A stretch of DNA of 32,000 nucleotides from assembly GCF_001457595.1 (NCBI RefSeq), contig NZ_LN831039.1:3930001-3962000 (forward strand), given 5' to 3'. Under the pieces are notes generated by a model, which made no database searches, was not told the DNA's origin, and saw only the letters and a program-made list of their open reading frames with translations. The position numbers and the translations under genes are program-made. This DNA comes from Mycolicibacterium smegmatis. GTDB lineage: Bacteria; Actinomycetota; Actinomycetes; Mycobacteriales; Mycobacteriaceae. The stretch's first letter is position 1, and each line of letters starts with the position of its first letter. Shown in pieces: positions 15,426 to 23,363 of this stretch.

Positions 15426-16454
15426 TCAGTAGTCGGATTCTGCGGCCAGGATCTCGGCGAGGTACGCGTCTGCCGTGGGCGCCGCGAGTCGTGCCCTGGC
15501 GAACGCCCGCACGCGGGCCCGGGTCCGGGCGTCCTCGTCTGGTCCGGCGGTGGCGCCCACGTGCACCACGGCCGTGCTCCAGTCCTGGTTCCACGCCTCG
15601 GTTTCCGTCGTCGGGCGCCCGCCGGTGACCATCGGTATCTCGGCGCGCCCGTCGGCAGCGAGCACACCCGCGCCGCCGTGGTCACCACACCGGACGGTCA
15701 CCGGGATGCCGTCGGCGTGACCCGGCCCCGAAAGAGCCACCTGGACAACGACGTCGACGGCTCCACCGTCGCTGCGCACCGACCACTCGACGGTGTCCTC
15801 GGCCGCGTCGAAGATCCCGGGCGGCACGGCCGACCACCGCACGGTTGCCACTCCCCCGGCGATCGCGTCTTGCCGCGAGGTACGTGAGCCTGCTGCCAGG
15901 GCGTAGTCCGCGCGCCGGACGGGGCCGACCGGCACGGTGGCGGTCCAGTCGACGCCGATCTCGGCGGCCAGGTCCCGGCACCGGTCGATGAGCGCGGTGA
16001 CGCGGGGATCACCCTCGGCCGCCAGGGCGTCCAGGCGTGCGGTATGTGGCGCCAACAGGCCCGCCACGTCGGAGTCGAGGGTGTCGTCGGTGAAGAACTC
16101 CTCGGCGGCGACGGTCGAGAGCGCAATCTCGGCGTCGAGCAGCGCGGGATCCAGTTCGGCGATGCCTTCGCGGATACTCGCGGGCCACCAGCGGCGCAGC
16201 CAGTGGCCGAGCGCCAACCGCCGCAGGGCGTCGGTCGAGCCGGGCAGCACCTGGAGGTCTGCCGTGCGTCCCTCAACCACAGCGACATGCGCCTGCTCAC
16301 CGACCACCCGCCAGAGCCAGTCCGCCCGAAGCGGATCGGTGAAACTGATCTCCGGTGCGGTGCTGGGTTCTTCGTCGACGATCCACGACAACACCGCGCC
16401 GCTGACCTCGAGCACCGCAACCGACGGCAGCGGCGGATACCCCGGATCTGTCAT
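15426..16454 (-). CDS. Hypothetical protein (342 aa), no motif recognised
   Basis: Starts at M41 of the track ORF (MTDPGYPPLPS...). This ATG forms an ATGA overlap with the stop of the upstream ORF (16451-16454). The composition is protein-like (acidic, Trp-containing). Convergent with the esterase gene across an 11-nt gap. Confidence 0.6.
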   Translation of the reverse strand: MTDPGYPPLPSVAVLEVSGAVLSWIVDEEPSTAPEISFTDPLRADWLWRVVGEQAHVAVVEGRTADLQVLPGSTDALRRLALGHWLRRWWPASIREGIAELDPALLDAEIALSTVAAEEFFTDDTLDSDVAGLLAPHTARLDALAAEGDPRVTALIDRCRDLAAEIGVDWTATVPVGPVRRADYALAAGSRTSRQDAIAGGVATVRWSAVPPGIFDAAEDTVEWSVRSDGGAVDVVVQVALSGPGHADGIPVTVRCGDHGGAGVLAADGRAEIPMVTGGRPTTETEAWNQDWSTAVVHVGATAGPDEDARTRARVRAFARARLAAPTADAYLAEILAAESDY

Positions 16455-17737
16455 CCCGCCACCTGCACTTCCAGCATCGACTTGATCCGTTGCCGGTGAT
16501 CCAGGCTCACCGAGCGTGCGACACCTTCGAGCAGCGCACGCAGATCGTCGACGTCGCGGCACGATTCCTGCCACACGTCACGGCCGTGCAGCCTGGCCCA
16601 CAGCCGGCTGGTGTACGGCCGCGCGAACGACGCGAGGTCGTCGACCACCTGCTGCTGGCGCGGATGGATCGCCTCGCCGCCTGCGAGGTACCGGCGCGCG
16701 TGCAGCACATAGGCTTCCTTGGCCAGCCGCGACTGGATCCGCGACGACACCTCGTAGCGCGTCGGTGCGGCCTCGGCCAACGGGCGCAGATCGGTCGCGA
16801 CCTCGATCCCGGCGAGCAGCGCGGCCTGGTGGTCCTCGGCCAGCAGCCCCCACGGCGCGCACGCGCGGTCCACCTCCTCGGCGCACAGCAGTGGCACGTC
16901 GGGCAGTTCGTCGCGGGCGAGCGCACGCCGCAGTGTCGCCCGCACCCGGTCGACCACGCTTCGGTCCAGGGGCGGGTCCGGGGTCCGGTTTCCGCCCTCC
17001 GGCGTATCGATCGGCGGAGGTTGTTGCGGCACAGTAGAACACAGCCCGATGTCGGTGACCGACCACGGTCGGTCGGCGGGTGGGTTGGCGCCGGGACGCC
17101 GGATGCCCGCACCGAGGTTGTGCGGCGTGGCGTCGGCGATCAGCGCCGACCACACGCGTTGCCGCGCGGCTTCGGCGTTGTGGGTGGCGGCGGGCCCGAG
17201 CACCGTGGTCAGACCCGAGAAGAACGGGCCCGTGATCGCCTGGGACGGCGTCACATCGGCCCAGCTGCGCTGCAGTTGACGCTGCAACTGCCGCACCACC
17301 TGCGGGCTCTCGATGTGACGGTTGAGCACCTCGACGGCCGTGCGATCCCGGCCGCCGTGAACGTCGGCCAGCGTCCGGCGCGCCACCTCATCCGCGTCGT
17401 GCGCGGGCATGCCGCGTGCGACGGCGAGTTCGAAGCATGCCGGGAAGTAGAGTTCCTGCGCGTTGCCCGTGGTGATGCGCCTGCGCCTGCGTTCCTGTTT
17501 GAGCAGCGTGAACCAGGCCGCGGCGGCACGTAGACGCGGTGCGGCGCCGACGATCTCGGCATGCATCGCGGCAGCGGTGTCCGGGTCGAGCACGGCCGCG
17601 GAGAACTGGGTGTTGCTGCGCAACCGGAGCACCAGAGGATCGATGATGCGTTTGACGGTGCGCCGCAGCGGCGCACCGTCGTCGCCGCTGAGCACCTCGA
17701 CGCCGGATCCGATCGCACGCCAGGCCCGGTCGATCAC
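16451..17737 (-). CDS. Hypothetical protein (about 429 aa), helical, with an internal Pro-rich linker; no motif recognised
   Basis: The C-terminal ~430 codons of track ORF 16451..18229 look protein-like. The first ~150 codons are Ser/Thr/Arg-rich and antisense to a better + strand ORF. GTG 17737 has GAGG 6 nt upstream. Alternative starts are GTG 17803 (7 nt after a TATCCT -10-like hexamer, so possibly leaderless) and GTG 17764. Confidence 0.6.
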   Translation of the reverse strand: MIDRAWRAIGSGVEVLSGDDGAPLRRTVKRIIDPLVLRLRSNTQFSAAVLDPDTAAAMHAEIVGAAPRLRAAAAWFTLLKQERRRRRITTGNAQELYFPACFELAVARGMPAHDADEVARRTLADVHGGRDRTAVEVLNRHIESPQVVRQLQRQLQRSWADVTPSQAITGPFFSGLTTVLGPAATHNAEAARQRVWSALIADATPHNLGAGIRRPGANPPADRPWSVTDIGLCSTVPQQPPPIDTPEGGNRTPDPPLDRSVVDRVRATLRRALARDELPDVPLLCAEEVDRACAPWGLLAEDHQAALLAGIEVATDLRPLAEAAPTRYEVSSRIQSRLAKEAYVLHARRYLAGGEAIHPRQQQVVDDLASFARPYTSRLWARLHGRDVWQESCRDVDDLRALLEGVARSVSLDHRQRIKSMLEVQVAG

Positions 17738-17867
17738 CGCGCGCCTCGGTTGGGCCGCTCGCACCGCCGCGACTGCAGGCGTAGTGTCCGACCCGGTGCT
17801 CACCGGCACCAGGATAGAGGGACAGAACTTGGGTTCGGTAGCCGTCGGCGTCCCGGACGCTGGACCG

Positions 17868-18335
17868 ATGACCGACACCGTGCTGTTCACCGTCCTGTGC
17901 ATCGCGTGCTTCGGCGTCGCGACGGCGTTGCGGGCCGCCGTGGCACGGCGAGGATCCGATGACGTCCCCCCGCGCGACCCAAAAGACACGGAAGCCTCCG
18001 AACGTCTGGTGACCCTTGCCGAACTCGCCGCCGAATTCGACGAGATGCTCATTCGCAAAGGGGTGATGACGAGCACCCAGGTCTCGTTGATGCGTACCGG
18101 CATCCGATCCCGCGGCGTGGTCACCGGGATGCGGACCACGGGCGTGGTGCGTGAGGATTTCCGTGAGGTCGAACTCGATCTCATGGTGAGCCGCACCGGC
18201 GGCGGACAGTTCGCGGCCCGGCAGACCACGCTGATTCCGTTGTCGTCACTGCACAGGGTGTTTCCCGGCAGCGTGGTCGACGCGTACTACCGGCCGGGCG
18301 ACGAGCGCACGGTCGCGGTGTGCGTGTCACCCTGA
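17868..18335 (+). CDS. Small membrane protein (155 aa): N-terminal TM helix plus a beta-rich C-terminal domain (DUF3592-like impression)
   Basis: MTDTVLFTVLCIACFGVATAL... is a TM helix followed by a balanced composition. The antisense frame is junk. Possible alternative TTG start at 17829 (GAGGGA 6 nt upstream). Its stop lies 5 nt from the stop of the convergent CHAT gene. Confidence 0.6.
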   Translation: MTDTVLFTVLCIACFGVATALRAAVARRGSDDVPPRDPKDTEASERLVTLAELAAEFDEMLIRKGVMTSTQVSLMRTGIRSRGVVTGMRTTGVVREDFREVELDLMVSRTGGGQFAARQTTLIPLSSLHRVFPGSVVDAYYRPGDERTVAVCVSP

Positions 18336-18340
18336 CCGGC

Positions 18341-19543
18341 TCAGCGGGCACCGTCGACCGCGAAGGTCGCCAGCGACGCCCAGTACAGCGGGCTCGCGGT
18401 CACCTCACCCTCGCGCCAGCGGCGCATCTGCGCGCGCTGCCACTGGTTCACCGCGATACCTGCCTGTTCCTGGTTGTGGGCGAGGTCGACCCCGATCACG
18501 GTGTCGGCCATGGGATCGGCGTCGTCGGCGGTGAACGTGCGATAGCCGGCGCTGGTGGGCAACGGCCACAACGTGGCGGTGACCAGTTGCGCGCCACCGA
18601 GCACCATGGCCGCCACCAGACCCGTGGCCTCGTCGAACCGGTAGTCACCGCCGGATGCGCAGGCCAGCAGCGCCACTCGTGGCGGTACCGCAAGTGCCTG
18701 TGCGATGACGTCGGCCGCGCTCAGCGGTTCCGGTTCGGCGAGGTGCAGCGCGGCGCGGTCGGCGGTGTCGCCCTCGGCGGCGCTCGCGTGCCCGACGTAA
18801 AGCATGCGCGACGGTTCGTGTTCGCAGGCCCGTGCCAGCCAGCCGCGGTCGGCGTCGGGCCTGCGGAAGAGGTCGACCGGTCCATCGACCCGCGGCAGGA
18901 CCTGCCGCTGCGCCACCGCAGTGGCGAAGTGACGCGACAGCGGTGTGCCGGGTGTGGGCCTGCCGAGGACCGATCCGAGCGCGGAATCGGGGCGCTGCCC
19001 GGGGATTCGGGGGTCCAGCACCAGCAGCGCCGGGTTGTCGCGACGCGTGGTCCAGCTCACCGACCGGCGTGGCGCGTGGACGATGTTGGGCGGCACGGCC
19101 ATCAGTACGTCGACGAGTTCCATGAGCCGGAACTTGTGCAGCCCGGGCATCGCGAGTTGACCCCATGGCACGCGTGCCAGCTTGGGGCTCGGTGTGACGA
19201 ACAGCGTGGCCCGCGGCGCGGACACGCAGTCGATCAACAGATTCCAGGCCGGTTTGGGGATCAGGTGCGAGCCGAGTTCCTTCGCGAACTTGAGTTCCCG
19301 TTTTGGGTCGGCGAACGGTCCTGCGGTCAAGGATCTTTCGACGGCAGCAGCGACGGTTTCGCCACCGCGGGGGTCGGGCAGCGCGTCGTCGAGCGCGCTG
19401 TAGACGGCGGGCAGAGCAGGTTCTTCGAGCACCCATTTGAGCGTGCGTGCCGGCTCCCCCACCACCCGCAGGGTCGCGTAGGTCGCGACGCCCACGTCAG
19501 CGAATCGCAGTACCAGTGTCGCGGTCACGGCCAGGTCGCCCAT
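18341..19543 (-). CDS. CHAT domain-containing protein (caspase-fold cysteine protease)
   Basis: 400 aa. His-Cys dyad context is present (...RMLYVGHASAAEGD..., H252, and ...PRVALLACASGGD..., C295). So are LVTATLWPLP and the C-terminal ...SPLYWASLATFAVDG typical of CHAT domains. The ATG at 19543 overlaps the upstream ORF by 19 nt; an alternative GTG at 19528 gives a GTGA overlap. Confidence 0.8.
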   Translation of the reverse strand: MGDLAVTATLVLRFADVGVATYATLRVVGEPARTLKWVLEEPALPAVYSALDDALPDPRGGETVAAAVERSLTAGPFADPKRELKFAKELGSHLIPKPAWNLLIDCVSAPRATLFVTPSPKLARVPWGQLAMPGLHKFRLMELVDVLMAVPPNIVHAPRRSVSWTTRRDNPALLVLDPRIPGQRPDSALGSVLGRPTPGTPLSRHFATAVAQRQVLPRVDGPVDLFRRPDADRGWLARACEHEPSRMLYVGHASAAEGDTADRAALHLAEPEPLSAADVIAQALAVPPRVALLACASGGDYRFDEATGLVAAMVLGGAQLVTATLWPLPTSAGYRTFTADDADPMADTVIGVDLAHNQEQAGIAVNQWQRAQMRRWREGEVTASPLYWASLATFAVDGAR

Positions 19544-21246
19544 TCGGGCTCAGCCGAGGTGATTTCACGGCCGTAGCGCTGCCAAGCCAGTTCGCGGTAG
19601 CGGCTCAGGATCGGACCCGTCTGCGGATCCATCCGCAGTGGAGGCAACGGGCCGAGACGCGTGAGTCCACCCGATCCCGGGGTGCCCGCGTTCGCCGCGA
19701 CCGCCGGCGCGAGTTCGGCCTCCACCGGGACCGGTGCCGTGGCCGTCGCGGCCCAGTCACCCGCCGTCTGACCGATCGGCTCGGCGCTGAAGGTGCCCCG
19801 CGCGCTGTGGTATTCGACCAGCTCACTGATCAGCTCGGTGTTGTCCCATTCCCACGCCACCGCGAACGCTCCGGCCAGCATCGGCGCCGAGACCCAACTG
19901 GCCCAGCGCATCCGGGCGCCCGCATCGTCGATGGTGTAGCGCACCGAGTCGACCGCGAGCGCGGCGGGCACCTTGAGTTCGGCGGCCTGTTCGAGTTTCG
20001 CGGTGCCCCGAAGCCACTTCCGGCTGCCCGGACGGCACCGGAAAACCCCTTTACCGGATCTGTGTGTGGCCTCGACCTGTTGCCAGGTCTGCTCCGGTGT
20101 GCCGAGGCCGTCGAAGCCCATCTCGGCCAGGGCCTCGGCGCGCAGGATGTTGCCCAGGTGGTCGTCGAGGCGTGCGTACTGCAGCCAGCTGTGCCGCGGT
20201 GAGGAATCCAGGAGTTCTCGCGCCTCGGCGACCAGTTGTGTGGCCTCGTCGAACGCGCCACGGAAGATCGACAACCAGCTGCGCTGCAACAGGATCCGGT
20301 GGATGTACAGAGGCTTCCCGAGCTCGCGCCAGTGCCGCTCGGCGTGCTCCCAGCAGGTGTTCGCCTCCTGCAGCCTGCCGATTCCCAACCGGATCAGGCC
20401 GAAGTACAGCCAGCTCCGGGACACGTCGTGCGCGCGGGCGTGGTCGGCGATCACCGGGTACGCCTCGGTGACGAGGTCCTGGGTCTCGGCGTACTGTCCC
20501 GCAGTCCAGCATGCCGCGGCGCGTTCCAACTGGGTGCGGGCCCGCGGCAACGCCCACCCGCGGGCGTCGGCTCGCGCGCCGGCCCGCCGCAGCCACGGTT
20601 GCGCTTCCTCCAGCCGCCCGGATTCGGCGCAGAACCGGCCGTAACCCAGCGCCCCCGCGATGAACAGGTGATCGTCCTCTGGATCGCCGCCCCCTGAGCG
20701 TGTCACTGATTCGAGGACTGCGTCCCACAGCGGCGCCGAGCGTGCGTACAGGTCGTCGTCACACAGGCCCGTGGCGACGAGGATGCGCGCGTGGATGCCG
20801 AGGCGCCGGTGCTCGGCGTCGAGATCCTCGGGGCCCACCGAATCGATCAGGGTGTCGAGGTGTTCGGCGGCGCGGTCATGGTCACCCCGCGCGGCGGCAA
20901 GACCTGCGGCGAGGAACTCGGCGCGACGGGTGTACCGGCAGATCATGTGGTCGACGTCGGCGTCGGACATGCGCACCTGGGCGGCGGCCTCGGGCATGCG
21001 GCCCGCGCGGATCGCGGTGTAGATGCCCAGGCAGTCCCCGATGCGCCGAATGCATTCGCCGACACCGTCGTAGGCGCTGCGCACCAGATAGATCTCGCCC
21101 AGCAGGGCGAAGACCTCGAGGGCGTAGTCGTCGCGATCGGCCTGCTCGATGCGCGGCATCAGGCTCACCAGGAGATCACGCGCCTGGTCTTCGTCGGCCG
21201 ACAACATGAGGTGACGCGCGCGCTCCAACTCCCCCGCGATGGTCAC
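19525..21246 (-). CDS. TPR-like helical-repeat protein (573 aa) with an uncharacterised C-terminal ~190 aa
   Basis: The N-terminal ~380 aa consist of repeated amphipathic helix pairs with TPR-like spacing (e.g. ALGYGRFCAESGRLEEAQPWLRRA, CWTAGQYAETQDLVTEAY, LGIGRLQEANTCWEHAERHW). GTG start. The TPR assignment is by eye only. Confidence 0.65.
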   Translation of the reverse strand: MTIAGELERARHLMLSADEDQARDLLVSLMPRIEQADRDDYALEVFALLGEIYLVRSAYDGVGECIRRIGDCLGIYTAIRAGRMPEAAAQVRMSDADVDHMICRYTRRAEFLAAGLAAARGDHDRAAEHLDTLIDSVGPEDLDAEHRRLGIHARILVATGLCDDDLYARSAPLWDAVLESVTRSGGGDPEDDHLFIAGALGYGRFCAESGRLEEAQPWLRRAGARADARGWALPRARTQLERAAACWTAGQYAETQDLVTEAYPVIADHARAHDVSRSWLYFGLIRLGIGRLQEANTCWEHAERHWRELGKPLYIHRILLQRSWLSIFRGAFDEATQLVAEARELLDSSPRHSWLQYARLDDHLGNILRAEALAEMGFDGLGTPEQTWQQVEATHRSGKGVFRCRPGSRKWLRGTAKLEQAAELKVPAALAVDSVRYTIDDAGARMRWASWVSAPMLAGAFAVAWEWDNTELISELVEYHSARGTFSAEPIGQTAGDWAATATAPVPVEAELAPAVAANAGTPGSGGLTRLGPLPPLRMDPQTGPILSRYRELAWQRYGREITSAEPEWATWP

Positions 21247-21252
21247 GTTCGC

Positions 21253-21258
21253 ATCATA
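21253..21258 (-). promoter_or_regulatory. -10-like hexamer TATGAT, 6 nt upstream of the GTG of the TPR-like gene (leaderless-transcript geometry)
   Basis: Minus strand reads ccaTATGATgcgaacGTG. TANNNT followed by 6-7 nt and then the start codon is the mycobacterial leaderless pattern. Confidence 0.35.
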
Positions 21259-21264
21259 TGGAAG

Positions 21265-21300
21265 CGGCGGGCGTGCCGGAGGTCTGAGGCACGCCCGCCG
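21265..21300 (-). terminator. 13-bp GC-rich hairpin downstream of the lipoprotein gene (weak U-tract)
   Basis: CGGCGGGCGTGCC (21265-21277) pairs with GGCACGCCCGCCG (21288-21300) around a 10-nt loop. It starts 11 nt after the lipoprotein stop (21312-21314). Confidence 0.5.
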
Positions 21301-21311
21301 CCCGGGAGGGA

Positions 21312-21788
21312 TCAGCTGCAGCTCACCGTGATGGTGAACGGCTTGCTGATCATCCCGGCCATCGGGTTCTGCATGTCGGCGCCGGCGGCCTCGCCCGTGA
21401 TCGTATAGGTGTCGCCGTCGACCTCGACCTTGGCCGAACCGACCTTGACGCCCATGTTCTCGCTGACGGCGAGCGCGCTGCCGTCGTAGACCAGACCCAG
21501 TGATTCGACCTTCGGGCTGGCCTCGTCGGTCATCACCACACCGAGGCCCTGTTGCCCGCCGATCGCGGCACTGCCCACGTTGATCCGCCCGCCCTCCTTG
21601 ACGCAGGTCACCGAGTTCAGGTCCAGACCGGGAAGGTCCTTGCCGTCGACCTTGACCTGGGTGTTCCCGCCCGTCTTCACGTCGGCGGCGGCCGGGCTGG
21701 GTGTGGCCTGCGGTTTGTCGTCCGAGCAGCCGACCAGGATGGTGCCGGCCGCGAGCAGTCCCATGGTTCCTGCGATGACACGATTCAT
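21312..21788 (-). CDS. LpqH (19-kDa antigen) family lipoprotein
   Basis: 158 aa. Signal peptide with lipobox LVGC. The mature part resembles the 19-kDa lipoprotein family (...VTCVKEGGRINVGSAA...YTITGEA...FTITVSC). Confidence 0.85.
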   Translation of the reverse strand: MNRVIAGTMGLLAAGTILVGCSDDKPQATPSPAAADVKTGGNTQVKVDGKDLPGLDLNSVTCVKEGGRINVGSAAIGGQQGLGVVMTDEASPKVESLGLVYDGSALAVSENMGVKVGSAKVEVDGDTYTITGEAAGADMQNPMAGMISKPFTITVSCS

Positions 21789-21907
21789 GTTCGTCCCCTT
21801 ACCTTGCGCGTCGCCCCGATGGCTCCGTCGTGTCCTCAGTCAAAGGCGCGCAGGTCGCTACCGATCCCAAGAAGTGCGGGTCAGCGCAGGTCGGGGCGGT
21901 TCACAGG

Positions 21908-21913
21908 TACGGT
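21908..21913 (+). promoter_or_regulatory. -10-like hexamer TACGGT, 7 nt upstream of the ATG at 21921 (leaderless geometry)
   Basis: Read directly: ggTACGGTggggctcATG. Confidence 0.3.
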
Positions 21914-21920
21914 GGGGCTC

Positions 21921-22175
21921 ATGACCGATCAGCCCGATCCCGGACCCGCACCACAGCCGGAGGAGACCGGATACACCGAGGGTGGTGTGCCGACGTTCGA
22001 CGCGGTGCGGGAGAAGATCGAGACCCGGTACGGCACCGCGATCGGCTCGTCCGAGCTTGCCGGCGAGACCCCGGAGGGCAGGCGGGTCGAGGAGCAGTAC
22101 GAGGAACGCCAACGCGCGGCCGCCGAACGCCTCGAGCAGATCCGCAAATCGATGCGCGAGGACGAGAAGTCCTGA
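21921..22175 (+). CDS. Small acidic hypothetical protein (84 aa)
   Basis: Starts at M124 of the track ORF (MTDQPDPGPAPQPEETGYTEGG...EQYEERQRAAAERLEQIRKSMREDEKS). The upstream part of the ORF is junk. Its stop is 3 nt before the next ATG. Confidence 0.55.
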   Translation: MTDQPDPGPAPQPEETGYTEGGVPTFDAVREKIETRYGTAIGSSELAGETPEGRRVEEQYEERQRAAAERLEQIRKSMREDEKS

Positions 22176-22178
22176 GCG

Positions 22179-23363
22179 ATGCGCGTTTTCACGATCGCGG
22201 AGCGACGGACACGGCTTGCGCGACGCCACTTCCTGAGCCCTGAGAACCCCGCCGCGTCACCCGCCGCCGCCGCGCGCAGCTTCGTCGGACTGCACGCGAC
22301 CGACCCGGCGACACCGTATCTCTCGCTGTGGGCACGCCTTCGGAGGTTCACCGTCGCCGATCTGGACACCGAACTGTACGAGCGGCGTACCGTGGTCAAG
22401 CACCTCGCGATGCGCCGCACACTGTGGCTGGTCGGCGTCGAGGATCTGCCGTTCATCCAGTCCGCGGCCAGTGACCGGGTGGCGGCCAACGAACTGCGCA
22501 AACTGGCCGCGGATGCGCACAACGCCGGGTTGGAACCCGACGGGGAGACCTGGGTCAAGGTGGCACGCGCGGCGGTGCTGCGCCATCTGGAGAAACACGG
22601 CCCCACCGGCGCCCGGGAGTTGCGGGAAGCTCTGCCGGAACTCGCCGGAAGCCACGACCCCGCACCGGGTAAGAGCTATGGCGGCGAGACACCGTTGGCG
22701 CCAAGGGTTCTGACAGTTCTCGGCGTGCACGGTGAGATCATGAGGGGCCCGAACGAGGGTTCGTGGACGGTGTCACGGCCGCGCTGGGCGGCCACGGCCG
22801 ACTGGCTCGGCGCGCCGTACGTGCCCGCGCCCGCCGATGAAGCCCGCGCCGAACTGGTGCGCCGCTGGCTCGCGACATTCGGGCCCGCGACCGTCACCGA
22901 CGTGAAGTGGTGGTTCGGTCACACCCTGACCTGGGCGCGCCACGCGCTGCGCGACATCGGTGCCGTGGAGGTCGAACTCGAAGGCTGCGACGCGCCCGGC
23001 TACGTCCTGCCCGACGACCTCGATCCCGAGCCGGAACCGCAGCCGTGGGTCGCGCTGCTCCCGGGCCTCGACGTCACGACCATGGGTTGGTTCGACCGCG
23101 ACTGGTACCTCGACGGTCTCCGGGATCAGGTGTTCGACCGCAACGGCAACGCCGGGCCCACCGTGTGGTGCGACGGGCGTGTCGTGGGCGCCTGGGCACA
23201 CGACGCCGACGGGCGCGTCGACGTGCGACTGTGCACCGATATCGGCCGCGCTGCACGGAAGCTGCTGCAGCGCAAGGCCGATGACCTCACCGAGTGGCTC
23301 AACGGCACTCGCGTCAAACCGCGCTTCCCCTCACCGCTGTCGAAAGGCCAGTTCACAGGCTGA
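22179..23363 (+). CDS. Winged-helix DNA-binding domain protein, DUF1006/HTH_42 (YcaQ/AlkZ-like) family
   Basis: 394 aa. The N-terminal ...RRTRLARRHFL...GLHATDPATPYLSLWARL...VKHLAMRRTLWLV... resembles the YcaQ/AlkZ family as I remember it. Confidence 0.7.
   Translation: MRVFTIAERRTRLARRHFLSPENPAASPAAAARSFVGLHATDPATPYLSLWARLRRFTVADLDTELYERRTVVKHLAMRRTLWLVGVEDLPFIQSAASDRVAANELRKLAADAHNAGLEPDGETWVKVARAAVLRHLEKHGPTGARELREALPELAGSHDPAPGKSYGGETPLAPRVLTVLGVHGEIMRGPNEGSWTVSRPRWAATADWLGAPYVPAPADEARAELVRRWLATFGPATVTDVKWWFGHTLTWARHALRDIGAVEVELEGCDAPGYVLPDDLDPEPEPQPWVALLPGLDVTTMGWFDRDWYLDGLRDQVFDRNGNAGPTVWCDGRVVGAWAHDADGRVDVRLCTDIGRAARKLLQRKADDLTEWLNGTRVKPRFPSPLSKGQFTG

Follow-up and report, generated by a model that had tools for sequence, protein, structure and literature searches.

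What is currently known of CHAT proteases comes almost entirely from defence systems, either linked to CRISPR or acting by cell death, and the locus described here raises the question of what such a protease does, and with which partners, where it is core and vertically inherited. The locus lies in a 32,000-nucleotide stretch of Mycolicibacterium smegmatis DNA (contig NZ_LN831039.1, positions 3,930,001 to 3,962,000 of the forward strand), referred to as the window; all coordinates below are window positions unless they are called genome positions. Two overlapping genes at this locus encode a protein with TPR-like repeats and a CHAT protease, and an earlier account made from the letters alone (the sequence-only reading) saw no recognisable partner system for them. 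Our analysis revealed that the split TPR-CHAT pair is, very probably, the centre of one conserved unit of six genes, the others encoding two orphan proteins (here named unkA and unkB), a lipoprotein and a small membrane protein. In the reading that we favour, and to which we give a probability of roughly 0.4, this module would be a chromosomal, vertically inherited, multi-gene proteolytic-signalling unit of Actinomycetota, in which the TPR-CHAT pair acts on unkB, Clp proteases follow and unkA is the output.

A conserved six-gene module

In M. smegmatis the module sits between lysX (MSMEG_3796) and uvrA (MSMEG_3808), amid housekeeping genes. It consists of an LpqH-like 19-kDa lipoprotein (MSMEG_3803, 21312..21788, minus strand), the TPR-like protein of 573 aa (MSMEG_3802, 19525..21246, minus strand), the CHAT protease of 400 aa as counted from ATG 19543 (MSMEG_3801, 18341..19543, minus strand), the small membrane protein of 155 aa (MSMEG_3800, 17868..18335, plus strand), unkA of 437 aa (MSMEG_3799, 16451..17764, minus strand) and unkB of 342 aa (MSMEG_3798, 15426..16454, minus strand). 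Locus tags follow from gene order and from coordinates, the genome coordinate being the window coordinate plus 3,852,325 according to Table S7 of Martini et al. (2019). Both the TPR and the CHAT open reading frames (ORFs) were found as given, with a third-position GC of 0.8-0.9 that marks them as coding, and both proteins have 100%-identical database entries from Mycolicibacterium smegmatis. The third-position GC pattern of the small gene fits the plus strand.

When the window proteins were searched by tblastn against 84 genome loci, the TPR and CHAT proteins were found in all 84; unkA and unkB were found in 83 each, the lipoprotein in 79 and the small protein in 76. Misses for the four core proteins fell at contig ends, and several loci with complete coverage had no match for the small protein. 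Between genera the orthologues share 51-80% identity and show no sign of fast divergence. When one genome was scanned for each species, 401 had a relative, and the best 80 of these 401 were Mycobacteriaceae or metagenome-assembled genomes of Actinomycetota. Matches named M. abscessus, M. marinum and Nocardia farcinica were obtained in further searches.

The linkage does not depend on the surroundings. In Mycobacteroides salmoniphilum and M. marinum the flanks are wholly different and the same six genes are kept, namely the lipoprotein, TPR and CHAT genes, the small gene on the opposite strand and the two genes whose products have no Pfam family. Outside Mycobacteriaceae, where our hidden Markov model (HMM) scans of related loci covered the six module families, the order is permuted to [small, lipoprotein] unkA unkB TPR-CHAT with membership kept. 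The pair also travels with unkA and unkB in more than 30 metagenome loci, the unkA and unkB HMMs matching two adjacent ORFs directly upstream of the fused TPR-CHAT gene on the same strand. The genes for a Myco_19_kDa lipoprotein and for a DUF3592-like membrane protein are found next to unkA, and divergent from it, in several metagenome loci; Nocardia farcinica has the same arrangement. The lipoprotein stands beside the module outside Mycobacteriaceae at L102 (E 1.5e-19), at L096 and at the Nocardia locus L166, and neither lipoprotein nor membrane protein was seen within the covered region of loci L085-L092. Because membership is kept while order, orientation, fusion state and flanks all change, the six genes appear to be functionally linked.

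Two observations concern the spread and integrity of the module. In Mycobacterium sp. 21AC1 (L006:9218-14398) the CHAT and small-protein genes are separated by an insertion of about 5 kb, in which lie genes for an MFS transporter, an SDR and a LacI-family regulator as well as unassigned ORFs; the module therefore tolerates separation into a TPR-CHAT half and a small/unkA/unkB half. Judging from the gene order around Rv3723-Rv3724, at the insertion point of M. marinum, the module may be absent from M. tuberculosis. No paper on the module turned up in the literature searches that were made.

The same distribution bears on the suggestion of the sequence-only reading that the pair is a candidate defence system. 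An anti-phage or abortive-infection role, with TPR as the sensor of an invader and CHAT as the activator of a toxic effector, unkA or unkB, in the manner of Craspase-Csx30 or protease-gasdermin pairs, would suit the fact that CHAT proteases are best known from defence systems, that distant TPR/CHAT relatives occur on Rhodococcus plasmids including the conjugative pYYL1.1, and that orphan partners are common among defence effectors. We nevertheless consider it unlikely. The module is present in 401 species-level genomes with synteny conserved in essentially every Mycobacteriaceae locus examined, its location between lysX and uvrA is core, and its GC content is host-like (window GC is even, 0.65-0.73). 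No match to PADLOC-DB 2.0 was found at E 0.1 for TPR, CHAT, unkA or unkB, no phage-borne copies were found, and the orthologues lack the rapid divergence referred to above. A core, syntenic and PADLOC-negative module argues against a typical mobile phage-defence system, and the plasmid relative is without unkA, unkB and the motif of unkB described below.

That relative, on Rhodococcus ruber pYYL1.1 (L165, 121978-141156), comprises a distant CHAT protein (33% identity) and a divergent TPR protein with four hypothetical neighbours of 479, 480, 340 and 461 aa, and with NYN and DUF87 genes nearby. We considered it as a distant full analogue of the module and rejected it, the neighbours being unrelated to unkA and unkB (hhalign probability <1%) and no YALAAG motif being present. 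It may be a separate, mobile TPR/CHAT system.

The CHAT protease and its TPR partner

On the Pfam CHAT model (PF12770), which has a cut-off of 24 bits, the 400-aa protein scores 46.5 bits (E 4.4e-12, model positions 3-284/289), which bears out the CHAT hallmarks noted before in this ORF, and the domain belongs to the caspase-like proteases of clan CD. A homologue search returned 1266 proteins, and PF12770 was found in 120/120 of the homologues listed. The putative catalytic His252 (codon 18788..18790, minus strand; YVGHASA) and Cys295 (codon 18659..18661, minus strand; LLACASG) do not vary in any of the 26 orthologues, 11 fused forms or 53 diverse representatives (down to 26% identity) that were aligned. 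Both residues follow hydrophobic strands in the His-then-Cys pattern of the CHAT family (LYVGH252 and VALLAC295ASG), and the protein also contains the motifs TATLWPLPT and PLYWASLATFAVDGAR besides YVGH252ASA and LLAC295ASG. Judging from these alignments, MSMEG_3801 is a CHAT-family, caspase-like protease with an apparently intact dyad, and it is apparently active.

Four fused forms that are clear members of the family (P0258, P0255, P0272 and P0354) fall short of E 0.01 against Pfam CHAT. For this reason the subfamily is under-detected by the current Pfam model, and its members are often labelled 'hypothetical' or 'TPR protein'. The M. marinum CHAT protein (L003:11815-13188, 457 aa) carries insertions of about 50 residues in total relative to M. 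smegmatis, the largest near residues 133-134 of the M. smegmatis protein.

The repeat signal is weak in MSMEG_3802 itself (TPR_12, 23.5 bits, under the Pfam cut-off of 30.1) and clear across the family, with TPR_12 found in 18/24 orthologues and at 57.5 bits in the Nocardia counterpart. At family level the TPR-like assignment of the earlier account therefore stands; its 'unknown' C-terminal tail of about 190 aa does not. This tail is conserved and ends in W-x-T-W-P. A profile search of 1.8 billion representatives returned 446 relatives, of which about 10, with 800-1010 aa, bear the CHAT part C-terminally as fused TPR-CHAT proteins (from Cumulibacter, Amycolatopsis, Nocardiopsis, Occultella and Cellulomonas). 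By hhalign, the full 573-aa protein including the tail aligns to the N-terminal half of the fused forms (probability 100%, E 1e-107 for Cumulibacter soli P0242; 97%, E 8e-11 for P0255). Since the whole protein aligns in this way, the tail is, on this comparison, a conserved linker domain of the TPR-CHAT proteins of this clade. By the same alignments the mycobacterial genes arose by fission, their products being the two halves of a protein that other orders make as one chain, with TPR helical repeats N-terminal to CHAT as one unit in a separase/Csx29-like architecture. The earlier view of a split TPR and CHAT module is thus backed over the full length of the protein. TPR and CHAT are likewise split, with overlapping ORFs, at the non-mycobacterial locus L102.

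The junction of the two genes (GAATGGGCGACCTGGCCGTGA) had been described as overlapping by 19 nt if CHAT starts at ATG 19543, or as GTGA if it starts at GTG 19528, and both options exist in the sequence. In 81/82 orthologous loci the frames overlap. The TPR stop is overlapped by an in-frame start of the form [A/G/T]TGA in 69/82 loci, and only 53/82 have a start codon at the position of the upstream ATG, so that GTG 19528 is the better-conserved and favoured CHAT start; by coordinate arithmetic it is also the annotated start of MSMEG_3801. Translation of TPR and CHAT is probably coupled, as the sequence-only reading had proposed. We also weighed whether the split is only apparent, a programmed -1 frameshift within the overlap yielding one fusion protein: CHAT lies in the -1 frame with respect to TPR, the overlap is conserved and fused homologues exist. 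This is highly improbable and was rejected, as the overlap CCCGAATGGGCGACCTGGCCGTGA has no X-XXY-YYZ slippery heptamer and the conserved start-stop overlap is a classic signature of termination-reinitiation.

The orphan proteins unkA and unkB

The unkA and unkB genes are always adjacent and their ORFs overlap by 4 nt in 81/83 loci, the unkB start overlapping the unkA stop (ATGA) in M. smegmatis. Table S6 of the transcriptome study calls MSMEG_3799-3798 an operon from RNA data (PMC6448022).

We gathered homologues of the two proteins with one chimeric query (unkB plus unkA residues 1-260) that had been calibrated beforehand. When every member of the unkA and unkB alignments was compared with Pfam, NCBIfam and PADLOC at E 10, only noise was returned, and profiles of TPR, CHAT, unkA and unkB against PDB chains gave nothing usable. 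The all-helical unkA is the most conserved member of the module and has no Pfam, NCBIfam, PADLOC or PDB match. Its AlphaFold2 model is poor (predicted local distance difference test, pLDDT, 48.8), its Foldseek matches are meaningless, and it contains a long low-confidence central region with conserved patches. The AlphaFold2 model of unkB is confident (pLDDT 86.6, predicted TM-score 0.82) and shows a beta-hairpin/helical N-domain, a flexible linker, an Ig-like beta-sandwich and C-terminal helices; searched with Foldseek against PDB and BFVD it returned nothing below E 0.07.

Two short elements of unkB are conserved to an unusual degree. The first lies in the interdomain linker (D183-YALAAG189, 15888..15908, minus strand), where [DE][YFH]ALAAG was present in 91/91 fetched proteins (81 DYALAAG, 8 DFALAAG, 1 EYALAAG and 1 DHALAAG). 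Divergent non-mycobacterial unkB proteins, about 25-30% identical, have [Y/H/F]ALAAG at the same place in every case, and the flanks of the motif differ in sequence and, by over 20 residues, in length. Residues 178-192, which hold the motif, have a pLDDT below 50, the motif itself being modelled as a short low-confidence helix. The second element is the acidic C-terminus ESDY-COOH (15429..15440, minus strand), found in 87/91 proteins and replaced by DEDY, DTDF, DSDF, DEEF or ETDY in distant homologues.

M. tuberculosis has the SsrA tag AADSHQRDYALAA and M. smegmatis the tag ADSNQRDYALAA, and the YALAA of unkB equals the last five residues of mycobacterial SsrA tags (…RDYALAA). A cut between Ala188 and Gly189 would, because of this match, leave a fragment that ends in a canonical Clp degron. 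With an internal LAA in a segment that is predicted to be unstructured and varies in length, unkB appears to have the anatomy of a cryptic C-degron. On the strength of this invariant linker motif we put forward unkB as a concrete candidate substrate of CHAT, for which the sequence-only reading had named none.

Two other interpretations of unkB sequences were rejected. LexA-like self-cleavage of the S24 type at the Ala-Gly bond found no invariant Ser/Lys pair and no significant structural match. The 835-aa protein P0403 (ENA metagenome) was considered as an unkA-unkB fusion; its residues ~343-466 read out-of-frame, and it is most likely a frameshift, a pseudogene or an assembly error.

A proposed cleavage pathway

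In the mechanism that we propose, the TPR half would recruit unkB, perhaps through the acidic ESDY-COOH tail as a docking peptide; acidic C-terminal peptides such as the EEVD of Hsp70/Hsp90 bind TPR clamps. The CHAT half would then cut the flexible linker after YALAA and before the invariant Gly, the new C-terminus would mimic an SsrA tag, and ClpXP or ClpC1P would remove the N-fragment. Loss of this fragment might free or activate unkA, the presumed output protein, and the membrane protein and the lipoprotein could tether the module to the cell envelope or let it report on the envelope. That all this forms an undescribed housekeeping pathway of Actinomycetota, M. smegmatis, M. abscessus, M. 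marinum and Nocardia farcinica among them, in which unkB is cut by TPR-CHAT, its SsrA copy is unmasked, Clp destroys the fragment and unkA is released as a new kind of effector, maybe under control of the envelope pair, is a tentative and rather doubtful extension.

The motif allows a different use. The module could be real and unkB not its substrate, YALAAG and ESDY being contact motifs, with CHAT cleaving unkA, the small protein, itself or an unlinked protein. Our results do not tell binding from cleavage at this motif, which the model shows as a short helix; unkA too has a long low-confidence central region with conserved patches, and regulation by bound pseudosubstrates is found in relatives of separase and craspase. 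An invariant six-residue block that equals a universal C-degron plus Gly within a linker of variable length would, however, be hard to explain as a generic contact, and CalpT, the precedent (see below), has the same anatomy. We regard a contact role without cleavage as somewhat unlikely.

Several points weigh against cleavage of unkB as the function of the module. We infer the cut at YALAAG from sequence alone, and the motif, given its modelled helix, could be a binding element in place of a cut site. Ala at P1 is unusual for clan CD proteases, Craspase taking Leu or Met. Neither the CHAT sequence nor its profile matched any PDB chain even at E 10, and the dyad is not alignable to a solved structure. 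No fold or family is recognisable for unkA, whose model failed, and this leaves the output blank. The small membrane protein of M. smegmatis has almost no extracytoplasmic part, so that relay of an outside signal by MSMEG_3800 is not easy to envisage, and the cleavage pathway does not explain what the lipoprotein and the membrane protein do. Finally, the 5' ends in the visible portion of a published listing are internal ones and do not include the leaderless TPR start that we predict (PMC6448022).

If the pathway is correct, a new route of regulated proteolysis would be added to mycobacterial physiology. This protease would be the first of the caspase family wired into the tmRNA-tag degradation route outside phage defence, and the logic recently found for CalpL, cutting to expose an LAA degron, would have a second, independent origin around a caspase-fold protease. 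A functional context would be provided for two sizeable families of orphan proteins, and the module, with its conserved unannotated partners and a specific substrate hypothesis, spans a medically important family.

The lipoprotein and the small membrane protein

MSMEG_3803 matches Pfam Myco_19_kDa (E 2.4e-31) and has a signal peptide with the lipobox LVGC. MSMEG_3800 has one N-terminal transmembrane helix followed by a beta-rich DUF3592-like domain, and its gene is convergent with CHAT and divergent from unkA. Relatives of the small protein in other Actinomycetota match its HMM and give sub-threshold DUF3592 matches (E about 1e-3). The corresponding neighbour in M. marinum has 147 aa and two predicted transmembrane helices and is too divergent for a tblastn match; we assume from its position and sequence pattern that it is a member of this family.

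These two proteins might suggest that the module serves envelope or lipoprotein biology, as quality control or signalling tied to the LpqH-like lipoprotein, the cytoplasmic protease adjusting envelope functions in place of a degron cascade. For this possibility speaks that, in Mycobacteriaceae, Nocardia and other Actinomycetota, reshuffling of the gene order has not parted the lipoprotein and the membrane-anchored DUF3592-like protein from the module. We consider it quite unlikely, though, because a strong hairpin separates the lipoprotein and TPR genes, the TPR gene has its own predicted promoter, the loci L085-L092 show neither envelope gene within their covered region, and TPR, CHAT, unkA and unkB have no visible signal peptide or transmembrane segment when their translations are read by eye.

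Comparison with known systems

The closest likeness is to Craspase (Csx29 plus Csx30) of type III-E CRISPR. Both have an N-terminal TPR scaffold, a C-terminal CHAT domain and a His/Cys dyad, and in both a dedicated substrate would be encoded next door and its cleavage would act as a signal, the substrate being only proposed in our case. The module lacks Cas7-11/gRAMP, CRISPR RNA, Csx31 and RpoE. The window has no cas-family Pfam or PADLOC match, no cas gene was found among the examined flanks of related loci, and solved Csx29 chains have no detectable sequence match to the module protease. Further differences are that unkA and unkB belong to unrelated families, that the protease is split in Mycobacteriaceae and that the locus is on the core chromosome and not in a defence island.

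The proposed downstream steps follow the logic of CalpL-CalpT-CalpS, an ancillary system of type III CRISPR. CalpL cuts an unstructured region of CalpT and exposes ...QLAA, and removal of the fragment frees the sigma factor CalpS; the paper on this system draws a parallel to RseA (...VAA). The logic that we propose is identical, with a partner cut, an LAA C-degron, housekeeping proteases and release of an effector. The systems differ in that CalpL is a Lon protease with a SAVED sensor for cyclic oligoadenylate, whereas here a clan CD CHAT protease is found and cleavage is predicted, and in that CalpS is a sigma factor and unkA is not recognisable as one.

RseA/sigma-E and LexA resemble the proposed scheme in that endoproteolysis creates a C-terminal Ala-Ala (VAA) degron for ClpXP. 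RseA uses DegS/RseP and LexA uses S24 self-cleavage, and unkB is without the invariant Ser/Lys pair of the latter. LexA is cut between Ala84 and Gly85, exposing ...VAA as a ClpXP degron, which is the same type of bond as proposed for unkB. The transmembrane anti-sigma factor DdvA of Myxococcus resembles the module in its use of a TPR-CHAT architecture for signalling linked to the membrane; its TPR-CHAT part is reported to be periplasmic and to have an incomplete His-Cys site. The module differs from DdvA in its invariant dyad, in having no visible transmembrane segment and in lacking a linked extracytoplasmic function (ECF) sigma factor.

Bacterial gasdermin and STAND-NTPase-CHAT systems share with the module a caspase-fold protease and a neighbouring target. 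unkA and unkB have no Pfam match that would make them a gasdermin substrate, and the confident unkB model has no PDB match below E 0.1 by Foldseek. No P-loop NTPase was found in any module protein or fused form, and the module is not patchily distributed. The statement of the sequence-only reading that no cas, STAND NTPase or gasdermin genes lie nearby thus agrees with our search of the window. Because the module is without cas, SAVED/Lon, sigma/anti-sigma, gasdermin and NTPase genes, it is a member of none of these systems; under the proposed mechanism it works like Craspase-Csx30 and, downstream, like CalpL-CalpT-CalpS and RseA, and its partners are new families.

Promoter and transcript ends

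The -10-like hexamer TATGAT (21253..21258, minus strand) lies 6 nt 5' of the TPR start codon GTG 21246, which confirms the TATGAT-N6-GTG arrangement from which a leaderless promoter had been predicted. TANNNT-N5-7-[A/G]TG is kept in 73/77 orthologous loci, far above chance for 70% GC DNA, and this conservation supports a leaderless-type promoter for the TPR gene, whose predicted transcript start would lie at genome position 3873571 (minus strand). Between the lipoprotein gene and this promoter is a GC-rich hairpin with a perfect 16-bp stem (21266..21299, minus strand; minimum free energy -35.9 kcal/mol, z -5.7), and 0/200 shuffles were equally stable. The same sequence recurs 5' of the TPR promoter in most orthologous loci, and the hairpin looks like an intrinsic terminator without a U-tract that would close the lipoprotein gene.

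In the accessible part of Table S7 of Martini et al. (2019), 5' ends are mapped at genome positions 3872750, 3873696 and 3874156, corresponding to 20425, 21371 and 21831 in the window, all on the minus strand (PMC6448022). Of these, 20425 falls within the TPR gene, 897 nt ahead of CHAT, and 21371 within the 3' end of the lipoprotein gene, 125 nt ahead of the TPR start, and both are listed with the 'codon-bias' motif 3; 21831 precedes the lipoprotein gene by 43 nt. Given the ends mapped at 20425 and 21371, the former inside the TPR gene, CHAT may be transcribed also from an internal start.

Other features of the window

The remaining genes of the window encode an acyl-CoA dehydrogenase, IclR, PfkB, an amidohydrolase, a SpoU methylase, L20 and LysX, as well as an esterase, an AlkZ-like glycosylase, an SDR, a luciferase-like oxidoreductase, UvrA and an MFS protein. 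Ahead of the AlkZ-like gene (probably MSMEG_3804), candidate ORFs on the plus strand overlap in two frames (21552-22175 and 21830-22243); the stretch 21830-22175 had no match in Pfam, and the frame near this gene with a plausible product (MTDQPDPGP...IRKSMREDEKS) begins near 21915. Within the module, a divergent intergenic region of 103 nt (17765-17867) separates unkA from the small-protein gene. For the locus tags considered here, the literature searches matched only a motif-based study in which the MSMEG_3799 promoter is predicted to hold three binding motifs of the TetR regulator Ms4022 (PMC4895335).

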